Positions 2,083-44,066 of a stretch of DNA of 45,565 nucleotides are shown in pieces. Every line of letters begins with the position of its first letter. The first letter of the stretch is position 1. Below the pieces are notes generated by a model, which was given only the letters and a program-made list of their open reading frames with translations, was not told the DNA's origin and made no database searches. The stretch comes from Nemertoderma westbladi (taxonomy: Eukaryota > Animalia > Xenacoelomorpha). The stretch is from positions 1-45,565 of the forward strand of contig JAUCBJ010004447.1 in the NCBI GenBank assembly GCA_032718475.1. Direction: 5' to 3'. The translations under genes and the position numbers were made by a program.

Positions 2083-2092
2083 CTGAAGAAAG

Positions 2093-5046
2093 TCGCGGAA
2101 AAATGTACAATGAAAACTAAAAGTAAGTGTGGGAAAATATACAAAGAAAATAAAAAGTAGGAAGGGGAAATATACAAGGAAAATAAAAAGTAGGACGGGG
2201 AAATTATACAAGGAAAATAGAAAGTAGATCGGGGAAAATATACAAGGAAAATAAGAAGTAGGTCGGGGAAAATATACAAGGAAAATAAAAAGTAGGTCGG
2301 GGAAAATATAGAAAGAAAATAAAAAGTAGGAAGGGGAAATATACAAGGAAAATAAAAAGTAGGTCGGGGAAAATATACAAGGAAAATAAAAAGTAGGTCG
2401 GGGAAAATATACAAGGAAAATAAAAAGTAGGTCGGGGAAAATATACAAGGAAAATAAAAAGTAGGTCGGGGAAAATATACAAGGAAAATAAAAAGTAGGT
2501 CGGGGAAAATATACAAGGAAAATAAAAAGTAGGTCGGGGAAAATATACAAGGAAAATAAAAAGTAAGTGGTGGAAAATATACAAGGAAAATAAAAAGTAA
2601 GTCGGTGAAAATATACAAGGAAAATAAAAAGTAAGTCGGGGAAAATATACAACGAAAATAAAAAGTTAGTCGGAGAAAATATACAACGAAAATAAAAAGT
2701 AAGTCGGGGAAAATATACAAGGAAAATAAAAAGTAAGTGGTGGAAAATATACAAGGAAAATAAAAAGTAAGTGGTGGAAAATATACAAGGAAAATAAAAA
2801 GTAAGTCGGGGAAATATCCAAGGAAAATAAAAAGTAGGTCGGGGAAAATATACAAGGAAAATAAAAAGTAAGTCGGGGAAAATATACAAGGAAAATAAAA
2901 AATTGGTCGGGGAAAATATAAAAGGAAGATAAAAAGTAAGTCGGGGAAAATATAGAAAGAAAATAAAAAGTAGGAAGGGGAAAATATACAAGAAAATAAA
3001 AAGTAGGTCGGGGAAAATATAGAAGGAAAATAGAAAGTAGGTCGCGGAAAATATACAAGGAAAATAAAAAGTAAGTCGCGGAAAATATACAAGGAAAATA
3101 AAAAGTAAGTGGTGGAAAATATACAAGGAAAATAAAAAGTAAGTCGGTGAAAATATCCAAGGAAAATAAAAAGTAAATCGAGGGAAATATCCAAGGAAAA
3201 TAAAAAGTAGGTCGGGGAAAATATACAAGGAAAATAAGAAGTAGGTCGGGGAAAATATAAAAGGAAAATAAAAAGTAAATCGGGGAAAATATACAAGGAA
3301 AATAAAAAGTAAGTCGGGGGAAATATACAAGAAAAATAAAAAGTAAGTTGTGGAAAATATACAACGAAAATAAAAAGTAGGTCGGGGAAAATATAAAAGG
3401 AAAATAAAAAGTAAGTCGGGGAAAATATACAAGGAAAATAAAAAGTTAGTCGGGGAAAATATCCAAGGAAAATAAAAAGTAGGTTGGGGAAAATATACAA
3501 GGAAAATAAAAAGTAGGTCGGGGAAAATATACAAGGAAAATAAAAAGTAAGTTGTGGAAAATATACAACGAAAATAAAAAGTAGGTCGGGGAAAATATAC
3601 AAGGAAAATAAAAAGTAAGTCGGGGAAAATATACAAGGAAAATAAAAAGTAAGTCGGGGAAAATATACAAGGAAAATAAAAAGTAAGTCGGGGAAAATAT
3701 ACAAGGAAAATAAAAAGTAAGTTGTGGAAAATATACAACGAAAATAAAAAGTAGGTCGGGGAAAATATAAAAGGAAAATAAAAAGTAAGTCGGGGAAAAT
3801 ATAGAAGGAAAATAAAAAGTAAGTCGGGGAAAATATACAAGGAAAATAAAAAGTAAGTTGTGGAAAATATACAACGAAAATAAAAAGTAGGTCGGGGAAA
3901 ATATACAAGGAAAATAAAAAGTAGGTCGGGGAAAATATACAAGGAAAATAAAAAGTATATAAGTTGTGGAAAATATACAACGAAAATAAAAAGTAGGTCG
4001 GGGAAAATATACAAGGAAAATAAAAAGTAGGTCGGGGAAAATATACAAGAAAAATAAAAAGTAAGTTGTGGAAAATATACAAGGAAAATAAAAAATTGGT
4101 CGGGGAAAATATAAAAGGAAAATAAAAAGTAAGTCGGGGAAAATATACAAAGAAAATAAAAAGTAGGAAGGGGAAAATATACAAGAAAATAAAAAGTAGG
4201 TCGGGGAAAATATACAAGGAAAATAAAAAGTAAGTCGGGGAAAATATACAAGGAAAATAATAAGTAAGTCGGGGAAAATATACAAGGAAAATAAAAAGTA
4301 AGTCGGGGAAAATATACAAGGAAAATAAAAAGTAAGTCGGGGAAAATATAAAAGGAAGATAAAAAGTATGTCGGGGAAAATATCCAAGGAAAATAAAAAG
4401 AGGTCGGGGAAAATATACAAGGAAAATAAGAAGTAGGTCGGGGAAAATATACAAGGAAAATAAAAAGTAAGTCGGGGAAAATATACAAGGAAAATAATAA
4501 GTAAGTCGGGGAAAATATACAAGGAAAATAAAAAGTAAGTCGGGGAAAATATACAAGGAAAATAAAAAGTAAGTCGGGGAAAATATACAAGGAAAATAAA
4601 AAGTTAGTCGGGGAAAATATACAAGGAAAATAAAAAGTAAGTCGGGGAAAATATACAAGGAAAATAAAAAGTAAGTCGGGGAAAATATACAAGGAAAATA
4701 AATAGTTAGTCGGGGAAAATATACAAGGAAAATAAAAAGTAAGTCGAGGGAAATATACAAGGAAAATAAAAACTTAGTCGGAGAAAATATCCAAGGAAAA
4801 TAAAAAGTAGGTTGGGGAAAATATACAAGGAAAATAAGAAGTAGGTCGGGGAAAATATACAAGGAAAATAAGAAGTAAGTCGGGGAAAATATACAAGGAA
4901 AATAAAAAGTTAGTCGGAGAAAATATAAAAGGAAAATAAAAAGTAAGTCGGGGAAAATATCCAAGGAAAATAAAAAGAGGTCGGGGAAAATATACAAGGA
5001 AAATAAAACGTAAGTCAAGGAAAATATACAAGTAAAATAAAAAGTA
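2093..5046. repeat. 34-bp minisatellite (AAGGAAAATAAAAAGTAAGTCGGGGAAAATATAC), about 87 copies, filling the 3' part of zinc-finger intron 2
   Basis: Unit read directly; 34-aa period in minus-strand ORFs. It runs up to the acceptor at 2083-2085. One to two inverted copies follow at 5051-5131. Confidence 0.95.
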
Positions 5047-5473
5047 AAGCCTTACTTACTTACTTATTTTCCCCGACTAACTTTTTTAATTTCCTTGTAT
5101 ATTTCCCTCGACTTACAATTCGGGAAAAATACACGCCTAATGTTCACACTGTAATCTTGTGGTACATAGATTATAAAACTTTAGTAAATACAGTAATATT
5201 ATGAAAATAGTATTAAAAAATGCCCGCCAAAAATGCCCGGAATATCCGCTCCGTTCATATCCGGCCAGAATTGACAAAAATCCGGCCGTATATTTTATGT
5301 TATTAGTTGTATGTTATTTTGTTACCTTTTTTTTTAAAGTAAAAAAGAAACAAAATTAATTTCCCCGGCGCCCCTACCTCATATAAATTCAAATTATTAT
5401 ATATTAAACTAGAAAAGCCAGAAAGCTGACTGTAAACGTAACTGTCTAACTCTAAATCGAAATTTAAGATTAA

Positions 5474-5553
5474 ACAAAAAGACCTGATCAGGGATCGAAC
5501 CCAGAACTTTCACACCTTAAGTCTGGCGCTTTACGGAGTGAGCTAACTGAGAT
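5474..5553 (-). pseudogene. tRNA-derived sequence (tRNA pseudogene or SINE head)
   Basis: Minus strand has A-box-like TAGCTCACTCCGTAAAGCG, B-box GGTTCGATCCC and a following T6 run. Anticodon and acceptor stems pair poorly. Confidence 0.6.
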
Positions 5554-5567
5554 AAATCACCAGAAAA

Positions 5568-5638
5568 TGTATTCGATTATAAGGAAGCTGATTCTTTTAT
5601 AGGTGATAAAAGAATCAGCTTCCTTATAATCGAATACA
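5568..5638. repeat. Perfect 33-bp inverted repeat with 5-nt loop
   Basis: TGTATTCGATTATAAGGAAGCTGATTCTTTTAT-aggtg-ATAAAAGAATCAGCTTCCTTATAATCGAATACA. Confidence 0.95.
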
Positions 5639-5675
5639 ATAATGTAATATTTAATTAACAATTAATAATATTTAC

Positions 5676-6116
5676 CTTGGCACAGTACATGCATTCTAGA
5701 ACGGGTTTACTCAGCTGCGGTTTGGCCACACGCGGTCTCGACGCAGCCTTCGTACTACCGGCGCGAGACTCCCCACTCCCGTTGGCGGTGGGACCACCGC
5801 CGGTGCCGTGAACCCTCACCATGTGCTGCACCAGGGCGGCCTTCCCCCGGAAGGACCGCGGGCACTTATCGCAGGCCCACCCCGGTACCTCGGGCTCTCG
5901 TCTAAACGGTTCCATGTGGTACCGCTGGAAGTGCGCGTGCAACAGGGTCCGGTTCACGAAGGATTTATTGCAGACGCTACAGAACCAGGACTGGCCTCTG
6001 TGCAGCGCTTTGCAGTGGGAGACCAGGGAACCCTTGGAACCCAGGAGTTTCCCACAGATGTCGCAGTCGAAGGATTCCTTGTTGTGTATCAACTTCCTGT
6101 GGGCAATGGCGGCCAC
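5676..6116 (-). CDS. C2H2 zinc-finger protein, middle coding exon
   Basis: Acceptor ctccctccctacag|GTG and donor AAG|gtaaat; 441 nt, phase 0/0. Fingers CDICGK..HCKALH, CSVCNK..HFQRYH, CDKCPR..HMVRVH. Confidence 0.92.
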
Positions 6117-6592
6117 CTGTAGGGAGGGAGACGAGGCGGCTAATGGTACTGAATAGTCCTGCATCCTATATACAGTAGACAAGCTATGTTTATCTCTGAT
6201 TGAGATACACCGTCTGTATTATTGGGGGTACGGATAATTCCGACCCAATCAGAGATCGAATAAAAATTTCATGTGTCGGAATTACCCGGATCCAGCGTAG
6301 GACAATTCCGACACAAATAATTTAAAAATAATAATAATAATAAATAATAATTTTATTTAACTACTGTTTTTTTTGTTTTACTATTTTATTATTCTACATA
6401 AGATTGCTGGGTCCATGGATATTTAGATTTATAGACACGTTTGCTATGTAATTTTATAGTTGTATAGTATTTTTCGAATTGGGTGCATTCGGTATACCGA
6501 ACACACCCTCGGTGTGCCCAAAACACACCAGTACTGGTACTAGTGTGTTTTGGGTGTGTTATAAATATATTTAGCTATTAATTAAGAAAAAT

Positions 6593-6956
6593 ATTGTCCG
6601 GGTCGGAATTGTCCGGGTCGGAATTGTCCGGGTCGGAATTGTCCGGGTCGGAATTGTCCGGGTCGGAATTGTCTGGGTCGGAAATGTCCGAATCGGAATT
6701 GTCCGGGTCGGAATTGTCCGGGTCGGAATTGTCCGGGTCGGAATTGTCCGGGTCGGAATTGTCCGGGTCGGAATTGCCTGGGTCGGAAATGTCCGAATCG
6801 GAATTGTCCGGGTCGGAATTGTCCGGGTCGGAATTGTCCGGGTCAGAATTGTCCGGGTCGGAATTGTCCGGGTCGGAATTGTCCGGGTCGGAATTGTCCG
6901 GGAAGGAATTGTCCGGGTCGGAATTGACTGGGTCGGAAATGTCCGAATCGGAATTG
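6593..6956. repeat. 15-bp minisatellite (GTCCGGGTCGGAATT), about 24 copies
   Basis: Unit read directly. Related motifs in both orientations at 6231-6315 (AATTCCGAC, GTCGGAATT) suggest a decayed non-autonomous element. Confidence 0.92.
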
Positions 6957-8032
6957 CTTATGTTTATCATATTGCAATTTAATCTTAGGATCAATTAGAC
7001 TAAAAAGTTACAAACAAAACTTCGAAAGAAGAGTTCTAAATTTTGAGATATTAATTGAATGAGTCGTAATATATTATTAGTGCGAATGTATTTACAGCTA
7101 ATAGGATAACGTAACGACCGACAACCGTTACAAATGTTAAAGGGAAGGGGCCGGTTACTGCGGCAAGTTATTCTAACCAAAACAATAAACTGGAGTGGAG
7201 AGCGCAGGTTCCGCTCTTTTTGTTCGTAATAGCGGTTTCCGACGGCGGTTCTCGGCTGTCGGTTGTCAGCATATCGTTTACACCCAAAATCGTTTGCGTT
7301 GTTGGGAGACACACTACCCACCCATGTCGCGTTACCTATTAACCTGCGGTTGTTGCTCTCCATAGCAACAGACGCCAGGACCAAGTCGCAATGCTAGCTA
7401 GATGTGGTTGTCCGTCCGCATTTCATTCCTAGAAATCGCCTCATTTTATTGCCAAACTGTGGCAATATTTCCCGGATTGATATTTACATACAGACAGAAA
7501 ATATTGTTGAATACAAAAATAATGTGATTTACTTTATATCCCTTATGACTCATATAGACCTCGCCGAAACTCGTTTGGTAACTTTGTACATCTCTGGGTC
7601 AGCGGGATATAGTTAACATATATATTTTCTCCCAAACTTTATAGAGTTTCTCCCTGCGATACGTTGCCATCACCCACAATCCCCGATCACCAGTTCCACC
7701 TCCTGCGGTTCTCCCACTCCCACGATACTTATATAAGAGCCTCTGAATTAGACACGTCACTCAACTCAGCAACAGCTGCTGGCTTCTACTACAGTAAGAC
7801 TCACCAGAAGTACCGGTATTACATACTGAAACTAAAACCTGAATAGTTACTATTTTGAGTAATTTATTCTTATTTTTTTTATATTATATCGGGTTTTAGC
7901 GAATTTAAAAAAAAATTCAACAAAAAAATTAAGCGGGAATATTTATGATTATTTACAAAAACAATTTTCCCATTGTTGTGATGATTATAAATTAGAAAAA
8001 TACCGAAACCGGTCTGGGTTTGATGAACTCAC

Positions 8033-8611
8033 CTTGTTATCGTACTGCTCGCGACAAACATCGCAGTTATAAACGTAGCGACGCGGAAACCCCTGCGGAT
8101 TCGGATACATTCCCAACGGTCCCCCATCGGCGCCGTGTTTGCGCTGCATGTGCCGACGGTAATCGTCGCGAGATACTAGTTGCCGAGCGCAAACGCCGCA
8201 CTGCACCAGCTCCGAGTCGGCAGCTTTAGTCAGCTCGCGAAGCGCCTCGAATCCGTGGCGTTTACGCGTATGCGAGGCGAGCGCCGTCTCCGAGAGGTAG
8301 GAGTTCTCGCAGAGCTTACAAACGAACGAGACGAGCAGAGAGGAGGACGAAGTCTGCAGCAACCGAGGTTTAGCCGCCCCGCGCAATGCCATATGATTGC
8401 TTGGAGGTTCTACACTACCTTGGATTACGTCCACTTCCACGTTGCTTCCTATCCACTCCATTGTTTCTACCGTCAGATATTCTGGTGAAATTTCGGAATT
8501 TTCTCTATCTACGACATCCCCGATAACATTAGTCACGGCAACCGATTCCGCTGGGCCGCTCACAAAGAACGCGGGTAAATTACAGCTGTTCATACTTGGG
8601 TAACTTTCCAT
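8033..8611 (-). CDS. C2H2 zinc-finger protein, first identifiable coding exon (start uncertain)
   Basis: Donor AAG|gtgagt at 8033/8032. Fingers CKLCEN..HTRKRH, CGVCAR..HMQRKH and split finger CDVCREQYDNK|VAAIAHRKLIH. An ATG at 8611 gives a 447-aa, 10-finger protein; an upstream exon cannot be excluded. Confidence 0.8.
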
Positions 8612-8867
8612 TTTCACCAAAAAAATGCGCAGTTTTTTTAGTAGGCCTAGTATCTCGAATTCTACCGTCTGACATCAATAAAACACTGGTACCGGTACAG
8701 TTAAATCCAGTAGGCCTATGTTCCCTGCATATTATTTTGCAGATGATAGGTAGGACAGGCTACTGCAGTATGAGTCCTGTTGTATGCTACCGGTACTTAC
8801 TTTCAGTTTTGCATAGCATTATCTTCGGGCACTTTATTTTAGTGAGTATGGGCCGCTTTAGGTCAAT

Positions 8868-10757: not shown

Positions 10758-10883
10758 ATGTCAACGACCACCCGGAGTCGCAACATAAAGGCTGCCCACG
10801 AGCAAAGTGAGGAGGGAATGGAGTCCCAGGATAGACTGGTCGCTACAGCCCAGGCCGATCTGATAACTCCACAGGTCGACAAG
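10758..10883 (+). CDS. DNAH6: Axonemal dynein heavy chain 6, coding exon 1 (putative start)
   Basis: ATG..AAG|gtaact, 126 nt open (MSTTTRSRNIKAAHEQ..QVDK), phase 0, compatible with exon 2. Low conservation, so inferred from frame and splice sites. Confidence 0.6.
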
Positions 10884-11105
10884 GTAACTATAGTAACTAT
10901 TTAGTTATGTCTATCACGGTGGTTTATAAAAACATAATATATTATGTTTTTATAATATATATATACATCGGTTACCAGGTATTTATACCGTAAGGTATTT
11001 TTACCAAACACGCATGAAGTTTAAACTGGTAATATCGACAGAGAAAGTTGCGTGCCCGGTCAAAGGCGCGCGGAAACATTATGTATTTAATGGGGGGGGG
11101 GGGGG

Positions 11106-11268
11106 ATCTTTTACAGGTGATCAAAGTAGTATTATTGCCAAATATTTCAACCAATTTATATTATTATAATAATAATTATATATATACTAGACAGGTCTTC
11201 ATTAGTGGCGGCACAGAATCTATCTACTGAAATGTGAAATAATACTACTTTTATAACCTGTAAAAGAT
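11106..11268. mobile_element. Small MITE-like element with ~31-bp terminal inverted repeats
   Basis: ATCTTTTACAGGTGATCAAAGTAGTATTATT pairs with AATAATACTACTTTTATAACCTGTAAAAGAT. Confidence 0.55.
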
Positions 11269-11406
11269 AATTAAACTGGTAATATTTTATGCAGATTCGA
11301 ATCATTATTTAAACATTGTCTATATGAGTAGCATTATTACAATCTCATAAGGTCCAACTCACATTTTTTTATATTCCAAATATAATTTATATATATAATA
11401 TTATAG

Positions 11407-11556
11407 GAGGAGTTGAAACAGCGATTGTATTCGGAAACAAATTCCGAGTTTATGGCTACAAGTCAAGTCAATCCATTTGTTATACGTTTCCACGGTCCAA
11501 CCCCAGCCCAGGACGTTGCTAGGGCAAGACCATCTGGTCCCAACTTGGAACCCTTG
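11407..11556 (+). CDS. DNAH6: DNAH6 coding exon 2
   Basis: tatag|GAG..TTG|gtaagt. EELKQRLY..RPSGPNLEPL resembles the DNAH6 N-terminal KQRV..QPIKLEPL as I recall it. Confidence 0.8.
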
Positions 11557-11948
11557 GTAAGTCACAATCGGAACAGGAACATCATACCTATTTATGGTTA
11601 AAAATATTCTAGAATCCGTAGCCCAATGATATATCAGATATATTTAAATAGCTAATGTTTTTCCACTTTACGTTCTCCCACAATTTTTTCCACTTCTAAA
11701 CAAAATCCTTATTATAATATTATTTATCCTGTCTGTTCCGTCATTGTAGCCAGTTCTGTGTATTTTTTATTTATAACCAGTTTTGTGTACTTTCCCTTAT
11801 TGACGTGGACTTTCTCGTGGAACCAGTTGTGCGGAGTGGACTAAACCTTTTGTAACCTGGGTGTGACTCTCCACTTTATAACCAATTATGTGCACCTTTC
11901 CCACATATACTTCACTTGTAACCAGTTCTGCGACGTTACCCTTTATAG

Positions 11949-12085
11949 CCAGTTCTGTGTACTTTCCAATCACAAAACCAAATAGAATACATTCATGAAC
12001 GCCGATTGGAGGAACTGGTTGCTAAGGGTTACAAACCCCCTAGAAAGAAATCCAAAGAAGACCTCGGGGAAAGCCAAGACGTCAG
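11949..12085 (+). CDS. DNAH6: DNAH6 coding exon 3
   Basis: ctttatag|CCA..AG|gttagt. PVLCTFQSQNQIEYIHE matches DNAH6 PVLK..EYIHE; phases 0/2. Confidence 0.82.
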
Positions 12086-12871
12086 GTTAGTTAACACAGT
12101 AGGTCCTGGGTAAGGCGCTGGTGCAGCTAACAGATGTAGTTTTAATTCAAAATTTAAACTTTTGTCATAAAAGGTGAATTTTGTTAGTGGTTATACTTTG
12201 AGTTTAAGGGTAGAGTATCAGCCGCTTTCATTGAAATATTTCCGAAATTTCCGCCTTTTTATTATTTTTATTAACGTACATAGTGGTAATCATAACTAAT
12301 ATATAATAAGCACTATAGAGAGGGATAATGGTGGTGGTATGAAGAACGTTTTAGCAATTTTACGAAAAAAATTGAAATGCCAATTAGTTTGCCAGTAATA
12401 ATATCGTATAAAATAGGTGGGGTAATTCACTAAATTCATTGTAATTTAATTCTTAATTCGTCAATATTATGCTTATCCAAATAAATAACAGTCAAGCTTA
12501 ATTTATTCTTTAACTAGTGTTCTTTATTGACTCTGGTTTATTAATTTTTAAATACATTTATGTTTTATATTTTACAATATTTTATATATTTATTCTGGAG
12601 TGAAGGATGACTTTTACAGTTATAAATCGTATAATGATAATGAATTTTATTATAAAATTATAAATCTTTAAATAATTTAAACAGAGTGAAAGACACTTTT
12701 TCGCTTCATTAAAATCCTTTATAATTTATGCAATTTATTGTTGATGTTTAACATCTAAAAATTAAGTATTGGAGTGATTGGCACAAAATTGTTCAGGCAT
12801 CCATTACCCACAGCGAGATTTCTATAAAATGCGCTACCTTACAGAGCTGTCGATATTATTGGAATACACGA

Positions 12872-13255: not shown

Positions 13256-13287
<32 letters not shown>

Positions 13288-13860: not shown

Positions 13861-13948
13861 ATTTCCGACACGACTTCCTCCCATAGAAGTGGAAGACGAA
13901 AGGAGGAAATCGGCTTCGGCTCAAAGGCAGAAAGACGTCCCGTACAAG
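13861..13948 (+). CDS. DNAH6: DNAH6 coding exon 4
   Basis: ggtatag|ATT..TACAAG|gtgggt; 88 nt, phases 2/0, FPTRLPPIEVEDERRKSASAQRQKDVPYK. Bridges exon 3 and exon 5 in frame. Confidence 0.8.
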
Positions 13949-32353: not shown

Positions 32354-33405
32354 GTAAGCTTTAGGACAACGTCTAACCACCACGTCCTGGAATATTAATA
32401 TTTTCTTTAAGTTTAATGGCGAAATTTGATTCTTAAAAATATAGTAAAATGCTTTGAAACACAAACACACGGGGGAAATGCAAGTTCTCCATGTGTATTA
32501 AGTAGTTTTGCTTCGTCGTGGCATTTTTGGAACGATCTACGACAACGAAAGTACCATATGATACAATGCGCGGAGTGAGTAATACCATATAGTACAATGC
32601 CCCGGGGTAAGTATATTATTAGTACCATATGGATGGCACAATTCCTAGAGGGGTTTTTTAACATACAACACTGGGTCCTACTTTCTACGATTACCCGCCA
32701 GCGTACACTTGCGTCTGACACCTTCGGTTTAGGTCGTTAGCGTTCGATTTTGCCCCGTAAAATAAATATTTTAACATCTGATGGCGATAAATATCATTAT
32801 AAACTACGGTGGTGATTTGCGGCCTTTTCCCTTTTACCTTAATTAAATAATTTTACTCTTTACCTTCCAAATAATTTTACTCTTTCTTTACCTTTTTCAA
32901 TAATTTTACTCTTTACCTTTTTCAATAATTTTACTCTTTACCTTTTTCAATAATTTTTACTCTTTACCTTTTTTAATAATTTTACTCTTTACCTTTTCCA
33001 ATAATTTGACACTTTTCAACAAGCAGACTTGGCCTTAACTGTTATAAATTGAACCGTTAGGGGTTAAGTACCGGTATTCATCTAGCCTATATTGTACTGT
33101 ACCCTACCCGTTATTGAACGGAACTGAAACAGTGTTAAATAAATATTTGAATTAGGCCTACTACATAGCTATCTATTACGAGGCGGTTTATATTGACTAC
33201 GAATTGTTACGAAAGTTATGTTTGATTTTAATTGTTAATGTTGTTTATCTGTGATATGTTTCACAATGAAAACGTTTTGTATCTTATAGTTCCTCCTTTC
33301 ATATCCTTAAGGGGGGGGGGGGGGGGGGGGGGGGGGGGTTGACTAATTAACCAAAAATGTTCGTTCCCTTATTTAGGAGGCTTCGTTTTACCCAAGATTA
33401 TTAAT

Positions 33406-33490
33406 CAAGCAAGCAGTCGGCCGAAGCCGGAGGCGACCCGAAGGCTCCTCTTTCGATAGCTGCTACCCGAGGAGGGTAGGGGTGTGTTCG
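33406..33490. mobile_element. Interspersed repeat fragment (probable reversed SINE tail), second copy at 40649-40740
   Basis: GTCGGCCGAAGCCG..GCGACCCGAAGGCTCCTCTT..GATAGCTGCTACCCGA..GGTAGGGGTG is shared between the two sites, each preceded by CAAGCAA repeats. Confidence 0.6.
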
Positions 33491-34229
33491 CGCTTTTAGA
33501 CCTTTAGTAGCAGTTTAACCTGCCAAATTTAGGTGTCTTTTTGGTTATAAATCGACTTTTGCCTATAACAAGTATTTGATACACATAAAGCTACATTAGC
33601 CGAAGCCAGCCTATGCGCGATCATTCACCCACGGTTAAGGGAGACTGGATTCGGATGCTTCAACCTTATTGCGGTGTAGACCTACTGTATTATTCGATTG
33701 ATCGTTAATATAATCTCTGACAAATATTATTCACTTTCGGGAAATATTAACAGTTCCTTTAGGACGTGGCGCTCTAAGTATGTAAACAGAGTTATGACTT
33801 ACACTAAACACAACGGGATGGCTAATGATTCACGTATAAAGCGCATTCTTTAGGAGATGCTTTGTTATCTATCACACTCATGCACACTACCGCACACTGC
33901 TGCACACTGATCTGCCGACCTTCACCAATTTTAATCATATATAAGGAGAACAGCAACTGACACATGTAGGGTCTATGAAATAGCATTCAATTCACTCCAA
34001 AACCACTATAAGGTAAGTCGCAATTGCTATATGTAACCGGTCTCTCTAACCTTCAGTATATCAAGAAGATTGGGGTTTTCTGATTATTTATCGATATTCT
34101 CCAAATATAACAACATTCCATTAACTGATAACAATTAATAACCGACAGTAAATAGCAGTAAAATAATGCGGTGAAAGATTGAGTTGATTTGCTATGAGTC
34201 TGCTTTGATAACAGTTATACGTTTCTATG

Positions 34230-35153
34230 TTATTCGTTTATACGTTTCACTAGCAAGCCAGATTTCCGCAAATGATGAGAATTCCACATTTCTCTTATTG
34301 AATTCAGCAACCGTTGCAATAGATCCATATACACATACCGGATCAGTTCTATATGGATCCGATTAGAAGTAGTGATGACACTATAACCATCCAACTGAGC
34401 GAAGTGTTCAATCCAATGTTGTAAGCCAAGTTTTGGAAATTGGCTCCACCACGCCTCAATCCTCTGATTTCGAGAACTTTTACCGTACATATAGGTTGTG
34501 TTATGTTCTGCCCGCGTGTCATCATCAAAAGCTCGCAAATACCGTTGAATAACTTCTATATTAACATTTTCCGTTCCACAGTCGGAACGAATCAAATGAG
34601 GAAGACCTCCAAAATTTTTCACAGCATCAATAAAATAATGTCCGATTACGAATGGATCATTGTTGGTAGAGCTGCACTGCAGCCACAGTAGTTTGCGGCT
34701 ATAACCATCAATGCATCCGTGAAGGGCGAGTCCATAGTTTTTCAACTTATCCCACCCGTCCACATGGTGAATATAGTTTGGTCCTAATGCGTAATAACTG
34801 CGACGTACTACTTTGTTCCTAATGCGATCGGCAACAAGTTGCGGATTTAACGTTTTTTGTATGAGTGCTACTAATTCTTCACGTGCAAATAAACCATACT
34901 TTCGAAGTAGAATCCTCTTCATTTGGCGGTAACCACACGACGGCTCTCGAGAAATGGCGTTTATGATCAGTTTAATATTATCAACATCACACCTCTTCTT
35001 CAAATTTATGTCAAACAATAGGCGACGGACAGTTCGCGATGAAATCCGAATTAAATGTCTCTCATTGAGCAATCTACTGATTTCTAAGTGAGTATACCCT
35101 AAAGAATAGTAATCCGTTAATGTCTCGTTTAAATGTAGCATACTCATGGTCAT
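34230..35153 (-). CDS. Transposase with integrase-core (RNase H fold) DDE domain, 307 aa, C-terminus possibly truncated or spliced
   Basis: N-terminal HTH-like segment (GYTHLEISRLL..ISSRTVRRLL), GYRQM, and catalytic motifs HVDGWDKLK, IDGYSRK, IRSDCGTEN, NQRIEAWW. Confidence 0.88.
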   Translation of the reverse strand: MTMSMLHLNETLTDYYSLGYTHLEISRLLNERHLIRISSRTVRRLLFDINLKKRCDVDNIKLIINAISREPSCGYRQMKRILLRKYGLFAREELVALIQKTLNPQLVADRIRNKVVRRSYYALGPNYIHHVDGWDKLKNYGLALHGCIDGYSRKLLWLQCSSTNNDPFVIGHYFIDAVKNFGGLPHLIRSDCGTENVNIEVIQRYLRAFDDDTRAEHNTTYMYGKSSRNQRIEAWWSQFPKLGLQHWIEHFAQLDGYSVITTSNRIHIELIRYVYMDLLQRLLNSIREMWNSHHLRKSGLLVKRINE

Positions 35154-35591
35154 ACAATATGGCTCACAATGCTATACACAGTTCAGTTCAATCTGTTCAC
35201 AGTAAAGTTGACACCGTTTCAGTTCCGAAAGACTTCAAAGGTCAATAACGGGTATGGTACAATATATGTAGGCTAGGTGAATTCCGCTACCAGTACTTAG
35301 CGGGTTCGATCCGATTCGTACGTTCGATTCGCAACAGTTAAGGCCAAGTCTGCTTGTTGAAAAGAGTAAAATTATTGAAAAAGGTAAAGAGTAAAATTAT
35401 TGAAAAAGGTAAAGAGTAAAATTATTGAAAAAGGTAAAGAGTAAAATTATTTGGAAGGTAAAAGTAAAATTATTTGGAAGGTAAAGAGTAAAATTATTTG
35501 TAAGGTAAAGAGTAAAATTATTTAATTAAGGTAAAAGGGAAAAGGCCGCAAATCACCACCGTAATAAACGTTGTATATTTTATTCTCTCAG

Positions 35592-35696
35592 AGTTACGCC
35601 GCATAAGCAAATCAATCCTAGTGATTACTACACTCTCTCCCAGACCGGTGTGATTCATGTCTGCGATGGCGATTCAGAATACACAACATTGGAAGG
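35592..35696 (+). CDS. DNAH6: DNAH6 coding exon 6
   Basis: ctctcag|A..GG|gttagt; VTPHKQINPSDYYTLSQTGVIHV..EYTTLE; phases 2/2. Confidence 0.9.
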
Positions 35697-35900
35697 GTTA
35701 GTGTAATATATAGCAGTCTCATACTAAATACTGAAAGTTTTTGTCACATTACTTAAAAGGGTTTAGTTTATATGTGATGACCGGTAGAGTTTTTGTTACT
35801 GGAGTGTGTTGATGGTATGTGTGGTGTTGTATCTCGCGTTGAATTATAATATAATATATCGCTGCATCAAAAACTAAAGACTAAAATCTGTTTAATATAG

Positions 35901-36063
35901 GTGGGAAAGAGAATACAGTAAATATTGCACTCTACGAAAGATAGCAGCGTTTAATTTATTCCGTCCGTGGAAGGCCTTTACAGTCTGGAAGAAGAATGTT
36001 CGCGCCAAAAAGATTTCTCTATACAGAAGACGGCTGCAATCGGATCTGTTCATAGTTAATGAT
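35901..36063 (+). CDS. DNAH6: DNAH6 coding exon 7
   Basis: atatag|G..GAT|gtaagt; WEREYSKY..FNLFRPWKAFTVWKKNVRAKKI..LFIVND. Confidence 0.93.
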
Positions 36064-36521
36064 GTAAGTTCGTTATTTATCGCGGTATTATTATTTGGGA
36101 ACGTTTTCTACATTTCATGGTTTTTGGAGCTTTTTATCTTTTTAATTGTGCGTTTTACTTTTTTTAGTTTATTTTTATATAACACTTTTTTTCTGTCGGA
36201 ATTTTTTTTATAAATAACAGAATTGAATAACCCTCTGTTAGCGGGTTTAATTGTTTTATTAATACCCGTCAAATTGGTAGTCAAAATGGACCTGGTAGTT
36301 TCTTTAATTAAAAAAAACTGCAGGTTTGCTTAGACACTAATAATAATACACAATTACAATAATAACTAACAGTTTGTTATAGTAGGCCCTAAGTTAAAAG
36401 GGGAATATTGTTGCCGACAATGGTACCACCAGTGACGCAGTTCTGAATTTATAACAGATTATTTATTTACTCTCTCATTGTCTTTCCCATATACTATTTA
36501 TGAATGACATCGATATTTCAG

Positions 36522-36656
36522 TCTCTGCGTCCTGCTCTACTCAACATACGGGAGATGTGTTACAAGATATCGGACATGGCCCTGTGTAAGATTGAGAAGC
36601 AGCATACCTACACATTGGATTCCTTTAGAGAGGCTCAGTTCCATCAGCTGGAAGAG
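36522..36656 (+). CDS. DNAH6: DNAH6 coding exon 8
   Basis: tttcag|TCT..GAG|gtgcgt; SLRPALLNIREMCYKISDMALCKIEKQHTYTLDSFREAQ. Confidence 0.93.
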
Positions 36657-36931
36657 GTGCGTTATGGTGATAGACTTACTTAAGTTCACTAAGTGGCCCG
36701 TCGCGTACTTAATGACACACTTAACATAGTAATTTCCAATTCAATTCGTTTCCAACACCCCACCTATAGAAGTGTCGATACAAAGAGTTGTTATAGTTGC
36801 ATTTGATTGGTCGGAACATTGACTTCCTATTGGCTGTTCTGCTTTCCCTTACAGGTTAATGATCGTTACACTGTCCTGCTATTGGTTGCTCTGCTTTCCC
36901 CTCCTATTGGTTGCTCTGCTTTCCCTTGCAG

Positions 36932-37055
36932 GTTATTGGTCGACTGAGCGAATTCCGAGAGTTAGTTAAGGGCGTTGTCCGGAGCGCTTGTCGCACCGCC
37001 CTTCTCGAGGCCGGATTCACACCAGATGATTATTTTATGGACCCAGACCAGGACG
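36932..37055 (+). CDS. DNAH6: DNAH6 coding exon 9
   Basis: cccttgcag|GTT..G|gtgagt; VIGRLSEFRELVKGVVRSACRTALLEAGFTPDDY. Confidence 0.93.
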
Positions 37056-37262
37056 GTGAGTGTTACGGTCACTGATTGGCTCATTAATATGTCTCCCATC
37101 GCAAATTGGCTGTTATATTATGAAACATCAAAGTTTTTCCGTAAAGATTAATTTTTATTGTTACACCAGCAACGTATTATAGTTAATTCTTGTTTTTCTG
37201 CTTGATTTTTTCCGATAAATTACGTATTTGTTTTTGATTTCGAATTTAATTGCTTGTTGCAG

Positions 37263-37383
37263 ACGAGTTTCCCGGTTCCGGGACCAGTTACCTTGGCAAT
37301 GCGGAATTTGCAGGAGATTCCGCTGACAAGATGACCTACACGGAGCAAGCCAATAAACGGAAGCGTTGTAAGAGACTGAGCGC
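37263..37383 (+). CDS. DNAH6: DNAH6 coding exon 10
   Basis: gttgcag|AC..GC|gtgagt; ..DKMTYTEQANKRKRCKRLS; phases 1/2. Confidence 0.9.
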
Positions 37384-37484
37384 GTGAGTGACTTAATTAT
37401 AATTACCCGCTTAGTCATTTGCCTCATTATTACTTATTGTACAATGTACATGTATGGTGGGAATCCTAGTTAGAAGAATGACAT

Positions 37485-39341
37485 CCCACCGGGAGGCTAC
37501 CCTAACGCCCGTCTCTCCTCCCACCGGAGGCTACCCTAACGCTTGTCTCTCCTCCCACTGGAGGCTACCCTAACGCCCGTCTCTCCTCCCACCGGAGGCT
37601 ACCCTAACGCCCGTCTTTCCTCCCACCGGAGGCTACCCTAACGCCCGTCTCTCCTCCCACCGGAGGCTACCCTAACGCTCGTCTCTCCTCCCACTGGAGG
37701 CTACCCTAACGCCCGTCTCTCCTCCCACCGGAGGCTACCCTAACGCCCGTCTTTCCTCCCACCGGAGGCTACCCTAACGCCCGTCTCTCCTCCCACCGGA
37801 GGCTACCCTAACGCTCGTTTCTCCTCCCACTGAAGGCTACCCTAACGCCCGTTCTCCTCCCACTGGAGGCTACCCTAACGCCCGTCTCTCCTCCTACCGG
37901 AGGCTACCCAAACGCTCCCATCTCCTCCCACCGGAGGCTACCCTAACGCTCGTCTCTCCTCCCACTGGAGGCTACCCTAATGCCCGTCTCTCCTCCCACC
38001 GGAGGCTACCCTAACGCTCCTCTCTCCTCCCACCGGAGGCTACCCTAACGCTCCCATCTCCTCCCACCGGAGGCTACCCTAACGCTCGTCTCTCCTCCCA
38101 CTGGAGGCTACCCTAACGCCCGTCTCTCTTCCCGCCGGAGGCTACCCTAACGCTCCTCTCTCCTCCCACCGGAAGCTACCCTAACGCTCCCATCTCCTCC
38201 CACCGGAGGCTACCCTAACGCTCCCATCTCCTCCCACCGGAGGCTACCCTAGCGCTCGTATCTCCTCTCCCGGAGGCTACCCTAACGCTCCCATCTCCTC
38301 CCACCGGAGGCTACCCTAACTCTCGTCTCTCCTCCCACCGGAGGCTACCCTAACGCTCCCATCTCCTCCCACCGGAGGCTACCCTAACGCTCCCATCTCC
38401 TCCCACCGGAGGCTACCCTAATGCTCCCATCTCCTCCCACCGGAAGCTACCGTAACGCTCGTCTCTCCTCCCCCGGAGGCTACCCTAACGCTCACATCTC
38501 CTCCCACCGGAGGCTACCCTAACGCTCGTCTCTCCTCCCTCCGGAGGCTACCCTGACGCTCCAATCTCCTCCCACCGGAGGCTACCCTAACGCCCGTCTA
38601 TCCTCTCACTGGAGGCTACCCTAACGCTCGTCTCACCTCCCACCGGAGGCTACCCTAACGCTCCCATCTCCTCCCACCGGAGGCTACCCTAGCGCTCCCA
38701 TCTCCTCACACCGGAGGCTACCCTAACGCCCGTCTCTCCTCCCACCGGAGGCTACCCTAACGCTCGTCTATCCTCCCACCGGAGGCTACCCTAACGCCCG
38801 TCTCTCCACCCACCGGAGGCTACCCTAACGCTCGTCTCTCCTCCCACCGGAGGCTACCCTAACGCCCGTCTCTCCTCCCACCGGAGGCTACCCTAACGCC
38901 TGTCTCTCCTGCCACTGGAGGCTACCCTAACGCCCGTCTCTCCTCCCACCGGAGGCTACCCTAACGCCCGTCTTTCCTCCCACCGGAGGCTACCATAACG
39001 CCCGTCTCTCCTCCCACCGGAGGCTACCCGAACGCCCGTCTCTCCTCCCACCGGAGGCTACCCTAACGCCCGTCTCTCCTCCCACCGGAGGCTACCCTAA
39101 CGCCCGTCTCTCCTCCCACCGGAGGCTATCCTAACGCCCGTCTCTCCTCCCACCGGAGGCTACCCTAACGCCCGTCTCTCCTCCCACCGGAGGCTACCCT
39201 AACGCCCGTCTTTCCTCCCACCGGAGGCTACCCTAACGCCCGTCTCTCCTCCCACTGGAGGCTACCCTAACGCCCGTCTTTCCTCCCACCGGAGGCTACC
39301 CTAACGCCCGTCTTTCCTCCCACCGGAGGCTACCCTATCGC
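37485..39341 (+). repeat. 34-bp minisatellite (CCACCGGAGGCTACCCTAACGCCCGTCTCTCCTC), about 55 copies, in DNAH6 intron 10
   Basis: Unit read directly; ends about 32 nt upstream of the acceptor at 39373. Confidence 0.95.
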
Positions 39342-39373
39342 TTGTTTGTCACATTATTTTTCTATATTTTTAG

Positions 39374-39554
39374 ATTTATACGCCTTGCGGATTACCTTAT
39401 AGTAAACACAATGCATGTATTAGCCAATAACTCAGTGTCAACACTCCTCAACCATTACACTAAACTCCTCAATCAGACGCCATCTTACGACGTGATCGAG
39501 CAATGGGCAAAGGAGCTGCAAGGAAGTATTACCGACAAAAAGGAAGATGATGAG
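39374..39554 (+). CDS. DNAH6: DNAH6 coding exon 11
   Basis: tttttag|A..GAG|gttagt; FIRLADYLIVNTMHVLANNSVSTLLNH..TPSYDVIEQW. Confidence 0.93.
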
Positions 39555-40319
39555 GTTAGTTCTCATTGGTCCAATTTATTGATTGAGTTGGTAAACTAAA
39601 TAAAAAAATGATATCTTTTCAATATATATATATGATTCATACTCAAAGATTATCCCTCTAAATGAATAAAATAATGTTAAATTGAGCACTTGAGTTATAT
39701 TTAGCAAGCGGTATCTTGAAATATTGTCGTTTTCTATTATTTTTTTTATTAGTCGCGTGCACAGTGGCACAGCACCAGACAGGCTGGCATTTAATATAAT
39801 ATAATGATAAAATTTCAAATAAAATACGGACATATAAAACGCACATGTTTAAAGTCGACTCGGAATATATATATCTATAGCAACATCAAACTAATTAATA
39901 TATACAGATAATCAGGTCACTGCACTCAGCAGATTAACAACGAGGGCTATGTAACCAATATACTCATTAAAACTGACCATTAAAAAAAAGAAATAAAAAG
40001 ATTTAAAAGATACAGACAATCCGGTCGCTGCACTCTGCAGATTAACAAAGGCTATAGGACCAATATACTCATTCATGATAAACAATATATCCCATTGCCA
40101 GGTTTAAAACAGTTCAAAAGATATTCGTAACTTATCGTATCATTCGTAACTTCTACTAATCAGTAATCATACCAAACGAATCTCTTGTTTTCTTAACACA
40201 AAGTAAACAATTTACTTTCTCTCTATCTCGCTCACGCTCACCCAAAGTTGCAATCTTAATTTAACACATTATGTAGTATTTGACAAACACTAATATGTTT
40301 ACATTCACTTTGGTTTCAG

Positions 40320-40531
40320 TCGACACACTCAGAGGAAGAGGAGGACAGTAAGATTAAGGTACCTTCTCCTATGTTCGTTACTGAATTAGTTCTAGAACCG
40401 CACCAGCTCAGTTACATTCCCGATCTGGATCTATTCCTGGAGGGAACCACAGGAATTATAAAACATTACCAGGAGGCCGTCCTCAGTGTGGAAAACCTTG
40501 TTCCGGACACTTATTTCGACGCGTTCACTAG
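40320..40531 (+). CDS. DNAH6: DNAH6 coding exon 12
   Basis: tttcag|TCG..AG|gtgagt; PMFVTELVL..AVLSVENLVPDTYFDAFT; phases 0/2. Confidence 0.92.
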
Positions 40532-40708
40532 GTGAGTTCCGGACGCCAACTTGGACACATTCACTAGTGGGAGTACCGAACACAAACATGAATGTGTTCA
40601 CCAGGTGAGTATCGAACACAAACTTGGATGTTTTCATCAGGTGACCAACAAGCAAAGCAAAAAGTCGGCCGAAGCCGTATGCGACCCGAAAGCTCCTCTT
40701 CTGATAGC

Positions 40709-41244
40709 TGCTACCCGAAGGTAGGGGTGGGCGCTACTCCTATCTGCTACCCGAAGGTAGGGGTGGGCGCTACTCCTATCTGCTACCCGAAGGTAGGGGT
40801 GGGCGCTACTCCTATCTGCTACCCGAAGGTAGGGGTGGGCGCTACTCCTATCTGTTACCCGAAGGTAGGGGTGGGCGCTACTCCTATCTGCTACCCGAAG
40901 GTAGGGGTGGGCGCTAATCCTTTCTGCTACCCGAAGGTAGGGGTGGGCGCTATCCTATCTGCTACCCGAAGGTAGGGGCGGGCGCTACTCCTATCTGCTA
41001 CCCGAAGGTAGAGTGGGCGCTACTCCTATCTGCTACCCGAAGGTAGGGGCGGGCGCTACTCCTATCTGCTACCCGAAGGTAGGGGTGGGCGCTAATCCTT
41101 TCTGCTACCCGAAGGTAGGGGTGGGCGCTACTCCTATCTGCTACCCGAAGGTAGGGGCGGGCGCTACTCCTATCTGCTACCCGAAGGTAGGGGTGGGCGC
41201 TACTCCTATCTGCTACCCGAAGGTAGGGGCGGGCGCTACTCCTA
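40709..41244. repeat. 36-bp minisatellite (CTGCTACCCGAAGGTAGGGGTGGGCGCTACTCCTAT), about 15 copies
   Basis: Unit read directly; grows out of the interspersed-repeat fragment starting at 40649. Confidence 0.93.
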
Positions 41245-41355
41245 TATATAAGTATAATACAGCTATAATAGTTGATGGATTTTTAATTTGTATTTTATTA
41301 TATTAATCATTTCATATTGGTTAGTATTTTTATTTTATTTGTTTGGTATATTTAG

Positions 41356-41575
41356 ACCGCTAATCAACGGGAAATACGAAGAGAAAAGTTGCGGCGACGG
41401 TCCCTCATTGGCTGGAATGTTTGAAGACGATCGACATCTCCAGGGTATCATCCACAACATCCGCGAGGCCATTAAATCGTCCTTCGAGTCGGCCAACCAA
41501 TATTCCGAAACGTTCGACAAGTTCCGTGTATTCTACAACGAGAACGAGTCCATGGATGTGGACAGTGTCGCTAAG
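41356..41575 (+). CDS. DNAH6: DNAH6 coding exon 13
   Basis: tttag|A..GCTAAG|gtcagt; PLINGKYEEKSCGDGPSLAGMFEDD..FDKFRVFYNENESMDVDSVAK. Confidence 0.92.
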
Positions 41576-44066
41576 GTCAGTGTCCAAAGTGTTCTACAAG
41601 AGTCCATGGATGTGGACAGTGTCTCTAAGGTCAGTGTCCCAAGTGTTCTACAAGAGTCCATGGATGTGGACAGTGTCGCTAAGGTCAGTGTCCCAAGTGT
41701 TCTACAAGAGTCCATAGATGTGGACAGTGTCGCTAGGGTCAGTGTCCCAAGTTTTCTACAAGAGTCCAGAATGTGGACAGTGTCGCTAAGGTCAGTGTCC
41801 CAAGTGTTCTACAAGAGTCCATGGATGTGGACAGTGTCGCTAAGGTCAGTGTCCCAAGTGTTCTACAAGAGTCCATGGATGTGGACAGTGTCGCTAAGGT
41901 CAGTGTCCCAAGTGTTCTACAAGAGTCCATGGATGTGGACAGTGTCGCTAAGGTCAGTGTCCCAAGTGTTCTACAAGAGTCCATGGATGTGGACAGTGTC
42001 GCTAAGGTCAGTGTCCCAAGTGTTCTACAAGAGTCCAGGGTGTGGACAGTGTCGCTAAGGTCAGTGTCCCAAGTATTCTATAAGAGTCCATGGATGTGGA
42101 CAGTGTGGCTAAGGTCAGTGTCCCAAATGTTCTACAAGAGTCCAGGATGTGGACAATGTCGCTAAGGTCAGTGACCCAAGTGTTCTACAAGAGTCCATAG
42201 ATGTGGACAATGTCGCTAAGGTCAGTGTCCCAAGTGTTCTACAAGAGTCCATAGATGTGGACAATGTCGCTAAGGTCAGTGTCCCACGTGTTCTACAAGA
42301 GTCCATAGATGTGGACAATGTCGCTAAAGTCATTGTCCCACGTGTTCTACAAGAGTCCATGGATGTGGACAGTGTCGCTAAGGTCAGTGTCCCAAGTGTT
42401 CTACAAGAGTCCATGGATGTGGACAGTGCCTCTAAGGGCAGTGTCCCAAGTGTTCTACAAGAGTCCATGGATGTGGACATTGTCGCTAAGGTCAGTGTCC
42501 CAAGTGTTCTACAAGAGTCCATGGATGTGGACAGTGTCGCTAAGGTCAGTGTCCCAAGTGTTCTACAAGAGTCCATGGATGTGGACAGTGTCTCTAAGGT
42601 CAGCGTCCCAAGTGTTCTACAAGAGTCCATGGATGTGGACAATGTCGCTAAGGTCAGTGACCCAAGTGTTCTACAAGAGTCCAAGGATGTGGACAGTGTC
42701 GCTAAGGTCAGCGTCCCAAGTGTTCTACAAGAGTCCATGGATGTGGACAGTGTCGCTAAGGTCAGTGTCCCAAGTGTTCTACAAGAGTCCATGGATGTGG
42801 ACAATGTCGCTAAGGTCAGTGACCCAAGTGTTCTACAAGAGTCCAAGGATGTGGACAGTGTCGCTAAGGTCAGCGTCCCAAGTGTTCTACAAGAGTCCAT
42901 GGATGTGGACAGTGTCGCTAAGGTCAGTGTCCCAAGTGTTCTACAAGAGTCCATGGATGTGGACAATGTCGCTAAGGTCAGCGTCCCAAGTGTTCTACAA
43001 GAGTCCATGGATGTGGACAGTGTCGCTAAGGTCAGTGCCCCAAGTGTTCTACAAGAGTCCATGGATGTGGACAGTGTCGCTAAGGTCAGTGACCCAAGTG
43101 TTCTACAAGAGTCCATGGATGTGGACAGTGTCGCTAAGGTCAGTGACCCAAGTGTTCTACAAGAGGCCATGGATGTGGACAGTGTCGCTAAGGTCAGTGA
43201 CCCAAGTGTTCTACAAGAGTCCATGGATGTGGACAGTGTCGCTAAGGTCAGTGCCCCAAGTGTTCTACAAGAGTCCATGGATGTGGACAGTGTCGCTAAG
43301 GTCAGCGTCCCAAGTGTTCTACAAGAGTCCATGGATGTGGACAGTGTCTCTAAGGTCAGTGTCCCAAGTGTTCTACAAGAGTCCATGGATGTGGACAGTG
43401 TCTCTAAGGTCAGTGTCCCAAGTGTTCTACAAGAGTCCATGGATGTGGACAGTGTCTCTAAGGTCAGTGTCCCAAGTGTTCTACAAGAGTCCATGGATGT
43501 GGACAGTGTCTCTAAGGTCAGTGTCCCAAGTGTTCTACAAGAGTCCATGGATGTGGACAGTGTCTCTAAGGTCAGTGTCCCAAGTGTTCTACAAGAGTCC
43601 ATGGATGTGGACAGTGTCTCTAAGGTCAGTGTCCCAAGTGTTCTACAAGAGTCCATGGATGTGGACAGTGTCTCTAAGGTCAGTGTCCCAAGTGTTCTAC
43701 AAGAGTCCATGGATGTGGACAGTGTCTCTAAGGTCAGTGTCCCAAGTGTTCTACAAGAGTCCATGGATGTGGACAATGTCGCTAAGGTCAGTGACCCACG
43801 TGTTCTACAAGAGTCCATGGATGTGGACAATGTCGCTAAGGTCAGTGACCCAAGTGTTCTACAAGAGTCCATGGATGTGGACAGTGTCTCTAAGGTCAGT
43901 GTCCCAAGTGTTCTACAAGAGTCCATAGATGTGGACAGTGTCTCTAAGGTCAGTGTCCCAAGTGTTCTACAAGAGTCCATGGATGTGGACAGTGTCGCTA
44001 AGGTCAGTGTCCCAAGTGTTCTACAAGAGTCCATGGATGTGGACAGTGTCACTAAGGACAGTGTCT
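41546..44066 (+). repeat. 54-bp tandem array, 47 copies of the exon-13 donor junction (GAGTCCATGGATGTGGACAGTGTCGCTAAG|GTCAGTGTCCCAAGTGTTCTACAA)
   Basis: Donor positions from 41576 to 44057; distance 2481 = 46 x 54 - 3, with three 1-nt deletions. Confidence 0.95.

Follow-up and report, generated by a model that had tools for sequence, protein, structure and literature searches.

Why should some of the tandem repeats of one stretch of DNA from Nemertoderma westbladi lie across exon-intron junctions, and how does splicing find its way past them? The window, meaning the whole 45,565-nt stretch that we analysed, contains a ciliary dynein gene that, judged by its sequence, is DNAH6 (axonemal dynein heavy chain 6). 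Our model comprises 14 exons (2064 nt, 688 aa, with a putative start codon and without a stop), every intron is GT..AG, and the product is collinear with a mammalian DNAH6 at 46% identity (301/653 columns). Exon 3 searched alone in the PDB gave no dynein match. The exon joins 4-5, 5-6, 6-7 and 9-10 are present in contigs of sequencing run X4. This run is marked 'DNA?', and we take it as RNA-derived on the sole ground that its contigs skip GT..AG introns.

Table 1 Genes, exons and tandem arrays of the window.
Feature	Position	Strand	Basis or remarks
DNAH6, exons 1-14	10758..44308	+	688-aa open frame, PDB DNAH6 matches, collinearity with mammalian DNAH6
DNAH6 exons 1-5	10758-10883, 11407-11556, 11949-12085, 13861-13948, 32214-32353	+	
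DNAH6 exons 6-10	35592-35696, 35901-36063, 36522-36656, 36932-37055, 37263-37383	+	
DNAH6 exons 11-14	39374-39554, 40320-40531, 41356-41575, 44147-44308	+	
Exon-3 acceptor array	11737..11976	+	about 7 decayed copies of about 28 nt; true acceptor in last copy, cut after 11948
Exon-4 donor array	13933..20322	+	228 copies, 28-nt unit; true donor in first copy, cut after 13948; spliced X4 contig
Intron-4 core	20310..20416	+	107 nt, GT..AG, between last donor copy and first acceptor copy
Exon-5 acceptor array	20403..32240	+	228 copies, 52-nt unit; true acceptor in last copy, cut after 32213; spliced X4 contig
Exon-9 acceptor duplication	36816..36946	+	2 copies; decoy cut after 36854, true cut after 36931
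Exon-12 donor array	40518..40646	+	about 4 decayed 36-nt copies; true donor in first copy, cut after 40531; collinearity
Exon-13 donor array	41546..44065	+	47 copies, 54-nt unit; first donor collinear with DNAH6
34-nt GC-rich array	37484..39341	.	55 copies; stops 32 nt short of exon-11 acceptor; unit without junction
34-nt pyrimidine-rich array	2086..5047	-	87 copies; stops 3 nt short of last acceptor of zinc-finger gene (cut 2082/2083); unit without junction
C2H2 zinc-finger gene	1759..8620	-	three coding exons seen (about 8620-8033, 6116-5676, 2082-1759); 5' limit approximate

A preliminary description of the window had named six duplicated junctions (the exon-3, exon-5 and exon-9 acceptors and the exon-4, exon-12 and exon-13 donors). 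We scored all 31 junctions (27 in DNAH6, 4 in the zinc-finger gene) with a uniform local-duplication scan, and found that all six are real. They carry 2 to 228 local copies of themselves and score 18.4-37.3, while the remaining 25 carry none and score at most 8.8; shuffled sequence attained a score of 16 at 0.03% of positions. The three donors and three acceptors all belong to DNAH6, none of the four zinc-finger junctions being duplicated in the same scan, and in every case the extra copies lie on the intron side. Unit sizes, in the order of Table 1, are about 28, 28, 52, 77 (with an inner 25), 36 and 54 nt. Mean identity of the extra, decoy copies to the true junction ranges from 0.66 to 0.94, so the claim that ages run from near-identical to heavily decayed also holds.

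The units of the three large arrays are made up as follows: the exon-4 donor unit joins 16 nt of the exon-4 end to 12 nt of donor (GT kept in 227/228; mean decoy identity 0.88), the exon-5 acceptor unit joins 25 nt of intron end to 27 nt of exon-5 start (AG in register in 216/228, with AG two bases on in 11 of the 12 others; 0.94), and the exon-13 donor unit is mostly exon-13 end plus 13 nt of donor (GT kept in 45/47; 0.94). When the arrays are examined for concerted evolution that bypasses the edge units, units of the exon-4 array show 3.0-3.8 differences to the true unit versus about 2.1 between unit pairs, and those of the exon-5 array 2.4-3.4 versus about 3.1. In the exon-5 and exon-13 arrays, alignments revealed short stretches of matching sequence where the units begin and end. 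At the exon-3 acceptor, the decoys have a mean identity of 0.70 against a background mean of 0.46 (maximum 0.61, 555 positions), with two of the six (0.52 and 0.57) falling inside that background. The exon-12 decoys have a mean identity of 0.66, and the single exon-9 decoy, in a duplication within which 25 nt of the pyrimidine tract are themselves doubled, has 0.80.

The preliminary description also stated that the copy adjoining the unique exon body is the productive one. For intron 4, which holds two of the six sites, this is borne out by an X4 contig that joins the first of 228 exon-4 donors to the last of 228 exon-5 acceptors, its loose end running into the unique exon-5 body. RNA support for array splicing thus amounts to one contig from one run of another individual, and contigs drop rare forms. 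Of the 49,032 GT x AG pairs in intron 4, this first donor and last acceptor form the only one that leaves the frame open, making the intron an extreme natural test of splice-site choice. Use of the first exon-12 donor fits the size of an X4 contig, the reading frame and collinearity. At the exon-3 acceptor, exon-9 acceptor and exon-13 donor, frame and homology point to the exon-side copy: for exon 3, the first copy of the array breaks the reading frame, and the true acceptor keeps LEPL|PVL across the exon 2-3 join in the alignment to mammalian DNAH6. With each of exon-13 donors 1-4, the frame stays open; use of donors 2-4 would lengthen the protein by 18, 36 or 54 residues. Regular splicing therefore persists despite the decoy GT and AG sites in intron 4, and probably does so at the other sites.

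Junction arrays make up 20,958 of the 31,487 DNAH6 intron bases (67%), nearly all from the three large arrays, so the idea that they drive intron growth is correct for this window. The 107-nt GT..AG core between the facing arrays is presumably the ancestral intron 4. These data outline a transposon-free route to intron growth, from about 110 nt to 18.3 kb in intron 4 and from about 90 nt to 2.6 kb in intron 13.

Minisatellites that span junctions in amphioxus were reportedly named 'mirages' two decades ago. The accessible text on them describes mirages in Adh3, the globins BflGb6 and BflGb9, troponin C and PGBD5 (Ebner et al. 2010, PMC3087553; PMC3902484), with units of 10-160 bp (PMC3087553) and 2-7 copies in the globins and PGBD5 (PMC3087553; PMC3902484). 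As described there, they resemble the DNAH6 arrays in that the tandem unit spans an exon-intron boundary, on 5' and 3' sides and several times per gene, decoys keep AG or GT, normal splicing persists and unit sizes overlap. DNAH6 differs from these accounts in copy number (228, 228 and 47 versus 2-7) and in having, within a single intron, a donor array opposite an acceptor array with the same number of copies. Human junction-spanning VNTRs are described in F7 intron 7 (37 bp, 5-9 copies), CBS intron 13, 6-16, LMNB2 and PDGF (Borensztajn et al. 2006, PMC1557585). In the portion of that paper at hand, the first unit spans the donor and the most upstream donor is used, as in the DNAH6 donor arrays; a rule of 5'-to-3' scanning was established by mutation, and CBS and 6-16 leak to the next donor copies (PMC1557585). 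The human cases given there are donor-side only with at most 25 decoys, whereas three of the DNAH6 cases are on the acceptor side and decoys number up to 227. Vertebrate megasatellites, according to the available part of their description, also begin tandem amplification from an exon-intron segment and overlap exon-intron junctions, but their units of at least 90 bp become repeated coding exons (bioRxiv 10.1101/2021.07.19.452908), whereas the DNAH6 units of 25-77 nt stay intronic. Since junction-spanning repeats have been described in genes of both amphioxus and human (accessible text of PMC3087553, PMC3902484 and PMC1557585), the earlier supposition that the process is lineage-specific finds no support. 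The class is already known, and what is new here is an extreme member, in scale and in its facing equal arrays.

The proposal that amplification in this window centres on splice signals stands in part: arrays across junctions are over-represented under most nulls, and the strictest null gives P 0.074. In a window itself chosen for the pattern, the 25 local duplication events include 6 that cross a junction versus 1.2-2.0 expected (P 0.001-0.01); the other 19 do not, and none of the 25 lies wholly in coding exons. Expected matches rise from 1.2 to 1.8-3.4 in models that allow for a GC preference, for purging from exons and for ancestrally short introns. Because matching by each unit's own GC over-corrects for junction units, we replaced it with a weight fitted on non-junction events only, and still found six matches versus 1.8-2.7 expected (P 0.006-0.03). 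The strictest null leaves 6 of 12 events at junctions versus 3.36 expected, and arrays detected by TRF give 3 of 15 versus 0.66-1.09 (P 0.025-0.084). The excess over chance is thus null-dependent, 2- to 5-fold with P 0.001-0.08.

'GC-boundary instability', suggested as a cause, found no support: the GC step is 0.12 at duplicated junctions and 0.15 at others (P 0.5). In an initial comparison, intron-side GC came out higher at duplicated junctions (P 0.004), but this was rejected as circular because those flanks are array copies. Using the flank of the outermost copy, the difference was mostly gone (P 0.035, 0.25 and 0.73 at 15, 25 and 40 nt), and the GC step difference gave P 0.29-0.88.

Arrays had also been reported to abut the acceptors at 39373 and 2083. 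Both arrays are present, and a decayed edge copy of the one at 2083 forms the pyrimidine tract of the last zinc-finger acceptor. The label 'branch-type' is doubtful before exon 11, because that unit matches the head of a high-copy dispersed repeat (0/2000 shuffles). Among the 19 non-junction events, 4 have an end no more than 40 nt from an acceptor versus 0.86 expected (P 0.009, with a cut-off set post hoc), and 2 lie within 10 nt versus 0.21 expected.

We consider it reasonably probable that the six duplications are 'mirage'-type minisatellites that arose by ordinary slippage and unequal exchange, placing decoy splice sites in introns, and that persist through exon-side splicing; DNAH6 is then probably an ordinary, if large, case of a known repeat type. 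The genome would readily seed and expand 15-55-nt tandem repeats, more so in GC-richer DNA (non-junction units have a GC content of 0.43 versus 0.35 for non-exon DNA). Copies inside exons would be purged, as suggested by their absence among the 25 events. A junction-spanning unit leaves the mRNA unchanged, as seen for intron 4 and presumably true elsewhere, so an array could grow freely, and would persist because splicing keeps choosing the copy beside the unique exon. In ancestral DNAH6, introns were probably short (about 90-700 nt in 12 of 13) and AT-rich, with exons of higher GC, so that much of the DNA where repeats could both be seeded and be tolerated would have lain at junctions. The same anatomy and normal splicing in the published descriptions of amphioxus mirages and human F7 are consistent with this account. 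Such a tolerance filter would account for roughly one third to one half of the six duplications, leaving the others to either a weak but genuine bias or the way in which the window was chosen.

Against the mirage account count the excess that survives GC weighting, the acceptor-abutting events, the equality of the two intron-4 counts at exactly 228, which it leaves without explanation, and the single contig that forms the RNA support. The first two would fit a junction-directed mutational process, in which splicing-coupled R-loops or breaks, or a chromatin change at exon edges, seed splice-site duplications that splicing tolerance then permits to grow; in the accessible text of Ebner et al. 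(PMC3087553), moreover, the mirage mechanism is called unclear. We regard this as possible but the less probable reading, given the results with the strictest null and with TRF arrays, the unduplicated zinc-finger junctions, the GC step that is no larger at duplicated junctions, and a window selected for the pattern. Our literature searches brought up no study that tests across a genome whether repeats are seeded at splice sites, and a genome this rich in mirages would make such a study easy.

The third point concerns the GT..AG core of intron 4, flanked by exactly 228 donor and 228 acceptor units. Selection or mechanism could have matched the counts, for example if inside-out nested splicing removed the 107-nt core and then successive 80-nt donor-acceptor shells. 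Chance equality for one pair is about 0.003-0.02 (log-uniform copy numbers), and the conserved GT and AG of the units would suit such splicing. We nevertheless find such matching by selection or mechanism very unlikely. Variant patterns of the two arrays are uncorrelated, whether compared in parallel or as mirror images (r at most 0.11, a value reached by 4-5 of 73 shifts), and block-duplication lags differ between the arrays (18/11/7 versus 6). The units show neither similarity nor complementarity to each other (shuffles scored as high in 992 and 996 of 1000 cases), the donor array of exon 13 stands without a counterpart, and, as weak evidence, no X4 contig lies on donor units. One such coincidence is also expected among very many scanned windows. 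Coupled growth or base-pairing of the two arrays was rejected, as there is no mirrored variant structure and no complementarity. A 'Russian-doll' intron 4 combined with a junction-directed duplication process in this genome is similarly improbable; equal counts would be kept there because the single in-frame join of exons 4 and 5 would result only from as many donors as acceptors, and X4 shows only this final join for intron 4.

An origin of the arrays, or of the equality of their counts, in assembly error is more improbable still. Array lengths do rest on the assembly, and the equality is seen in one assembly only. However, runs X1 and X3 have contigs with units of both intron-4 arrays, and X2 has contigs with donor units; the two arrays contain 22 and 60 distinct variants of their unit, arranged in blocks; and X3, from a different sample and study, carries its own variants inside the exon-9 decoy.

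The window contains no N, and its numbering agrees with that of the preliminary description. Its plus strand encodes the 5' part of DNAH6 in 14 exons, with every intron GT..AG and 688 stop-free codons; a named mammalian DNAH6 shares 46% identity with the spliced frame, and exons 5, 8, 9, 12, 13 and 14 separately match PDB DNAH6 chains. A C2H2 zinc-finger gene occupies the minus strand, head-to-head with DNAH6, and a 33-mer array lies between the two genes. The 17-mer array that begins directly after the zinc-finger stop codon (1759) likely lies within that gene's 3' untranslated region.

Features of the window outside the coding sequence, with selected splice features
Feature	Positions	Strand	Details
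17-mer array	652-1745		62 copies
Zinc-finger 34-mer array	2086-5047
Fold-back	5049-5118		two inverted 34-mer copies
Intergenic interval	8620-10758		~2 kb
33-mer array	9368-9866		15 copies
Short element	12868-13400		intron 3; terminal inverted repeats, (ACG)n run
Intron-4 donor array	13933-20322		28-nt unit
Intron-4 acceptor array	20403-32240		52-nt unit
Intron-5 insertion	32799-35563		2765 nt; terminal inverted repeats, 6-nt flanking duplication
Dispersed-repeat head	33401-33500		matched by exon-11 34-mer
Dispersed repeat, nested copy	33406-34295		inside intron-5 insertion
ORF in intron-5 insertion	34233-35171	minus	313 aa; Pfam rva_4 integrase core, E 8e-34
Exon 7 to mid-exon 9 join	35926-36993		non-canonical ends, 4 letters in common
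Exon-11 34-mer array	37484-39341
Dispersed repeat, second copy	40655-41245		head seeds 36-mer array
Exon-13 donors 2-4	41576-41740		+18, +36, +54 aa

A local-duplication scan that treated all positions alike gave each of the 31 junctions a score for copies of itself close by. The six junctions previously described as duplicated (exon-3 acceptor, exon-4 donor, exon-5 acceptor, exon-9 acceptor, exon-12 donor and exon-13 donor) scored 18-37 and the remaining 25 at most 8.8, confirming the duplications. In that order, copy numbers are about 7, 228, 228, 2, 4 and 47, and the decoys (extra intronic junction copies) are 0.66 to 0.94 identical to the true junction. Units of the intron-4 arrays were also found in sequencing run X3, from another sample and study, so these arrays are not an assembly artefact. 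Of the 31,487 intron bases, 20,958 belong to extra junction copies; once arrays and two transposons are taken out, intron 4 measures ~110 nt and intron 13 ~90 nt.

Run X4, which is labelled "DNA?" but whose contigs skip GT..AG introns, bears on which copy is spliced (joints 5-6, 6-7 and 9-10). One X4 contig (depth 10.6) runs through exon 4 to its first donor, then enters the exon-5 start and the unique exon-5 body, showing that the outermost intron-4 pair is joined; among 49,032 GT x AG pairs, only this one keeps the frame open. A second contig continues for 613 nt after exon 10, precisely the combined length of exons 11-13, consistent with use of the first exon-12 donor. It terminates exactly at the exon-13 donor, short of exon 14; this end, placed by contig extent, may hint at branching or decoy use. 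At the exon-3 acceptor, exon-9 acceptor and exon-12 donor, joining at the true sites preserves collinearity with DNAH6, and the tested decoys disrupt the frame. Exon-13 donors 1-4 of 45 all leave the frame open; homology favours the first, with possible leakage to later donors by analogy with human CBS and 6-16. The exon-side copy is thus productive, as had been proposed, directly at the two intron-4 sites and, we infer, at the other four. A further X4 contig links exon 7 to mid-exon 9, likely a template-switch artefact.

We hand-listed 25 local duplication events, excluding (ACG)n and poly-G runs and merging overlapping rows, and collapsed each to a single unit, giving a 16.7 kb sequence for placement nulls. 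Six of the 25 span a junction, against 1.21 expected under uniform placement (P 0.0009), 1.45 under GC matching (P 0.002) and 1.96 when exon-internal placements were also purged (P 0.01). Fitting GC preference from non-junction events only gave 1.8-2.7 expected (P 0.006-0.03). TRF-only events yielded 3 hits in 15 (0.66-1.09 expected, P 0.025-0.084), and the DNAH6 body minus transposons 6 in 12 (1.5-3.4 expected, P 0.0015-0.074). The proposed window-wide tendency therefore exceeds expectation under most nulls and is real in the window, yet it is moderate, partly a product of geometry and selection, and overstated by how the window was chosen. Coding exons make up 3.4 of the 16.7 kb, yet none of the duplication events (0 of 25) falls within them.

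The preliminary description was right in what it observed and in part in how it explained it. GC-boundary instability is not borne out: with ancestral flanks, the GC step is 0.12 at duplicated junctions versus 0.15 at the other 21 DNAH6 junctions. The most likely mechanism is repeat seeding, exon-internal loss and free growth across junctions. Short tandem repeats would be seeded often; those within exons would be lost, as the 0/25 suggests; and those spanning junctions could grow freely because the exon-side site, whose use we show for intron 4, is chosen. Exon definition and nonsense-mediated decay form the general background to this mechanism. For F7, splice-site scanning has been demonstrated (PMC1557585). 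A weak bias directed at junctions, for which R-loops or splicing-coupled breaks are hypothetical causes, is a rather doubtful alternative: the excess over most nulls speaks for it, and the choice of window against it.

The DNAH6 arrays belong to a known class. Amphioxus "mirages" are tandem repeats spanning exon-intron boundaries, at both boundaries, with splicing unharmed and the mechanism unclear (Ebner et al.; PMC3087553), and further cases occur in troponin C and PGBD5 (PMC3902484). Human F7, CBS, 6-16, LMNB2 and PDGF carry junction repeats on the donor side, with leaky use of decoy donors in CBS and 6-16 (PMC1557585). From these cases, as described there, the DNAH6 arrays differ in scale and in the facing pair of arrays in intron 4. 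In literature covered mostly as titles and abstract openings, outside subscription journals, we found neither a genome-wide enrichment test at junctions nor matched donor and acceptor counts.

The intron-4 donor and acceptor arrays have exactly 228 units each around a 107-nt core, a match with a chance of about 0.003-0.02 for one pair. Nested duplication would predict mirrored variant blocks; these arrays show none, their duplication lags differ, and donor and acceptor units do not pair. The match is likely coincidence. A splice-site double-substitution variant in both arrays gives the identical hexamer CATAGT, and in the acceptor array 11 of 12 copies that lost the original AG have an AG two bases further on.

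The intron-5 insertion carries facing 25-nt arrays (7 copies). Contigs of runs X1 and X3 skip it; it is therefore polymorphic and probably young. The dispersed repeat is very high-copy, its contigs reaching depths thousands of times those of single-copy sequence. Of the 19 non-junction events, 4 terminate no more than 40 nt from an acceptor (0.86 expected, with the cut-off set afterwards). The array before exon 11, earlier taken for a branch-type array, is better read, from unit similarity, as repeat-seeded: its 34-mer matches the dispersed-repeat head (0/2000 shuffles as good; 28/2000 for the second copy). The head of the dispersed repeat, which recurs at 40655 and seeds the 36-mer array there, resembles this 34-mer array, and one dispersed-repeat family may have seeded several minisatellites. 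The zinc-finger 34-mer does grade into the pyrimidine tract of that gene's acceptor, and the fold-back lies at the array's far end.
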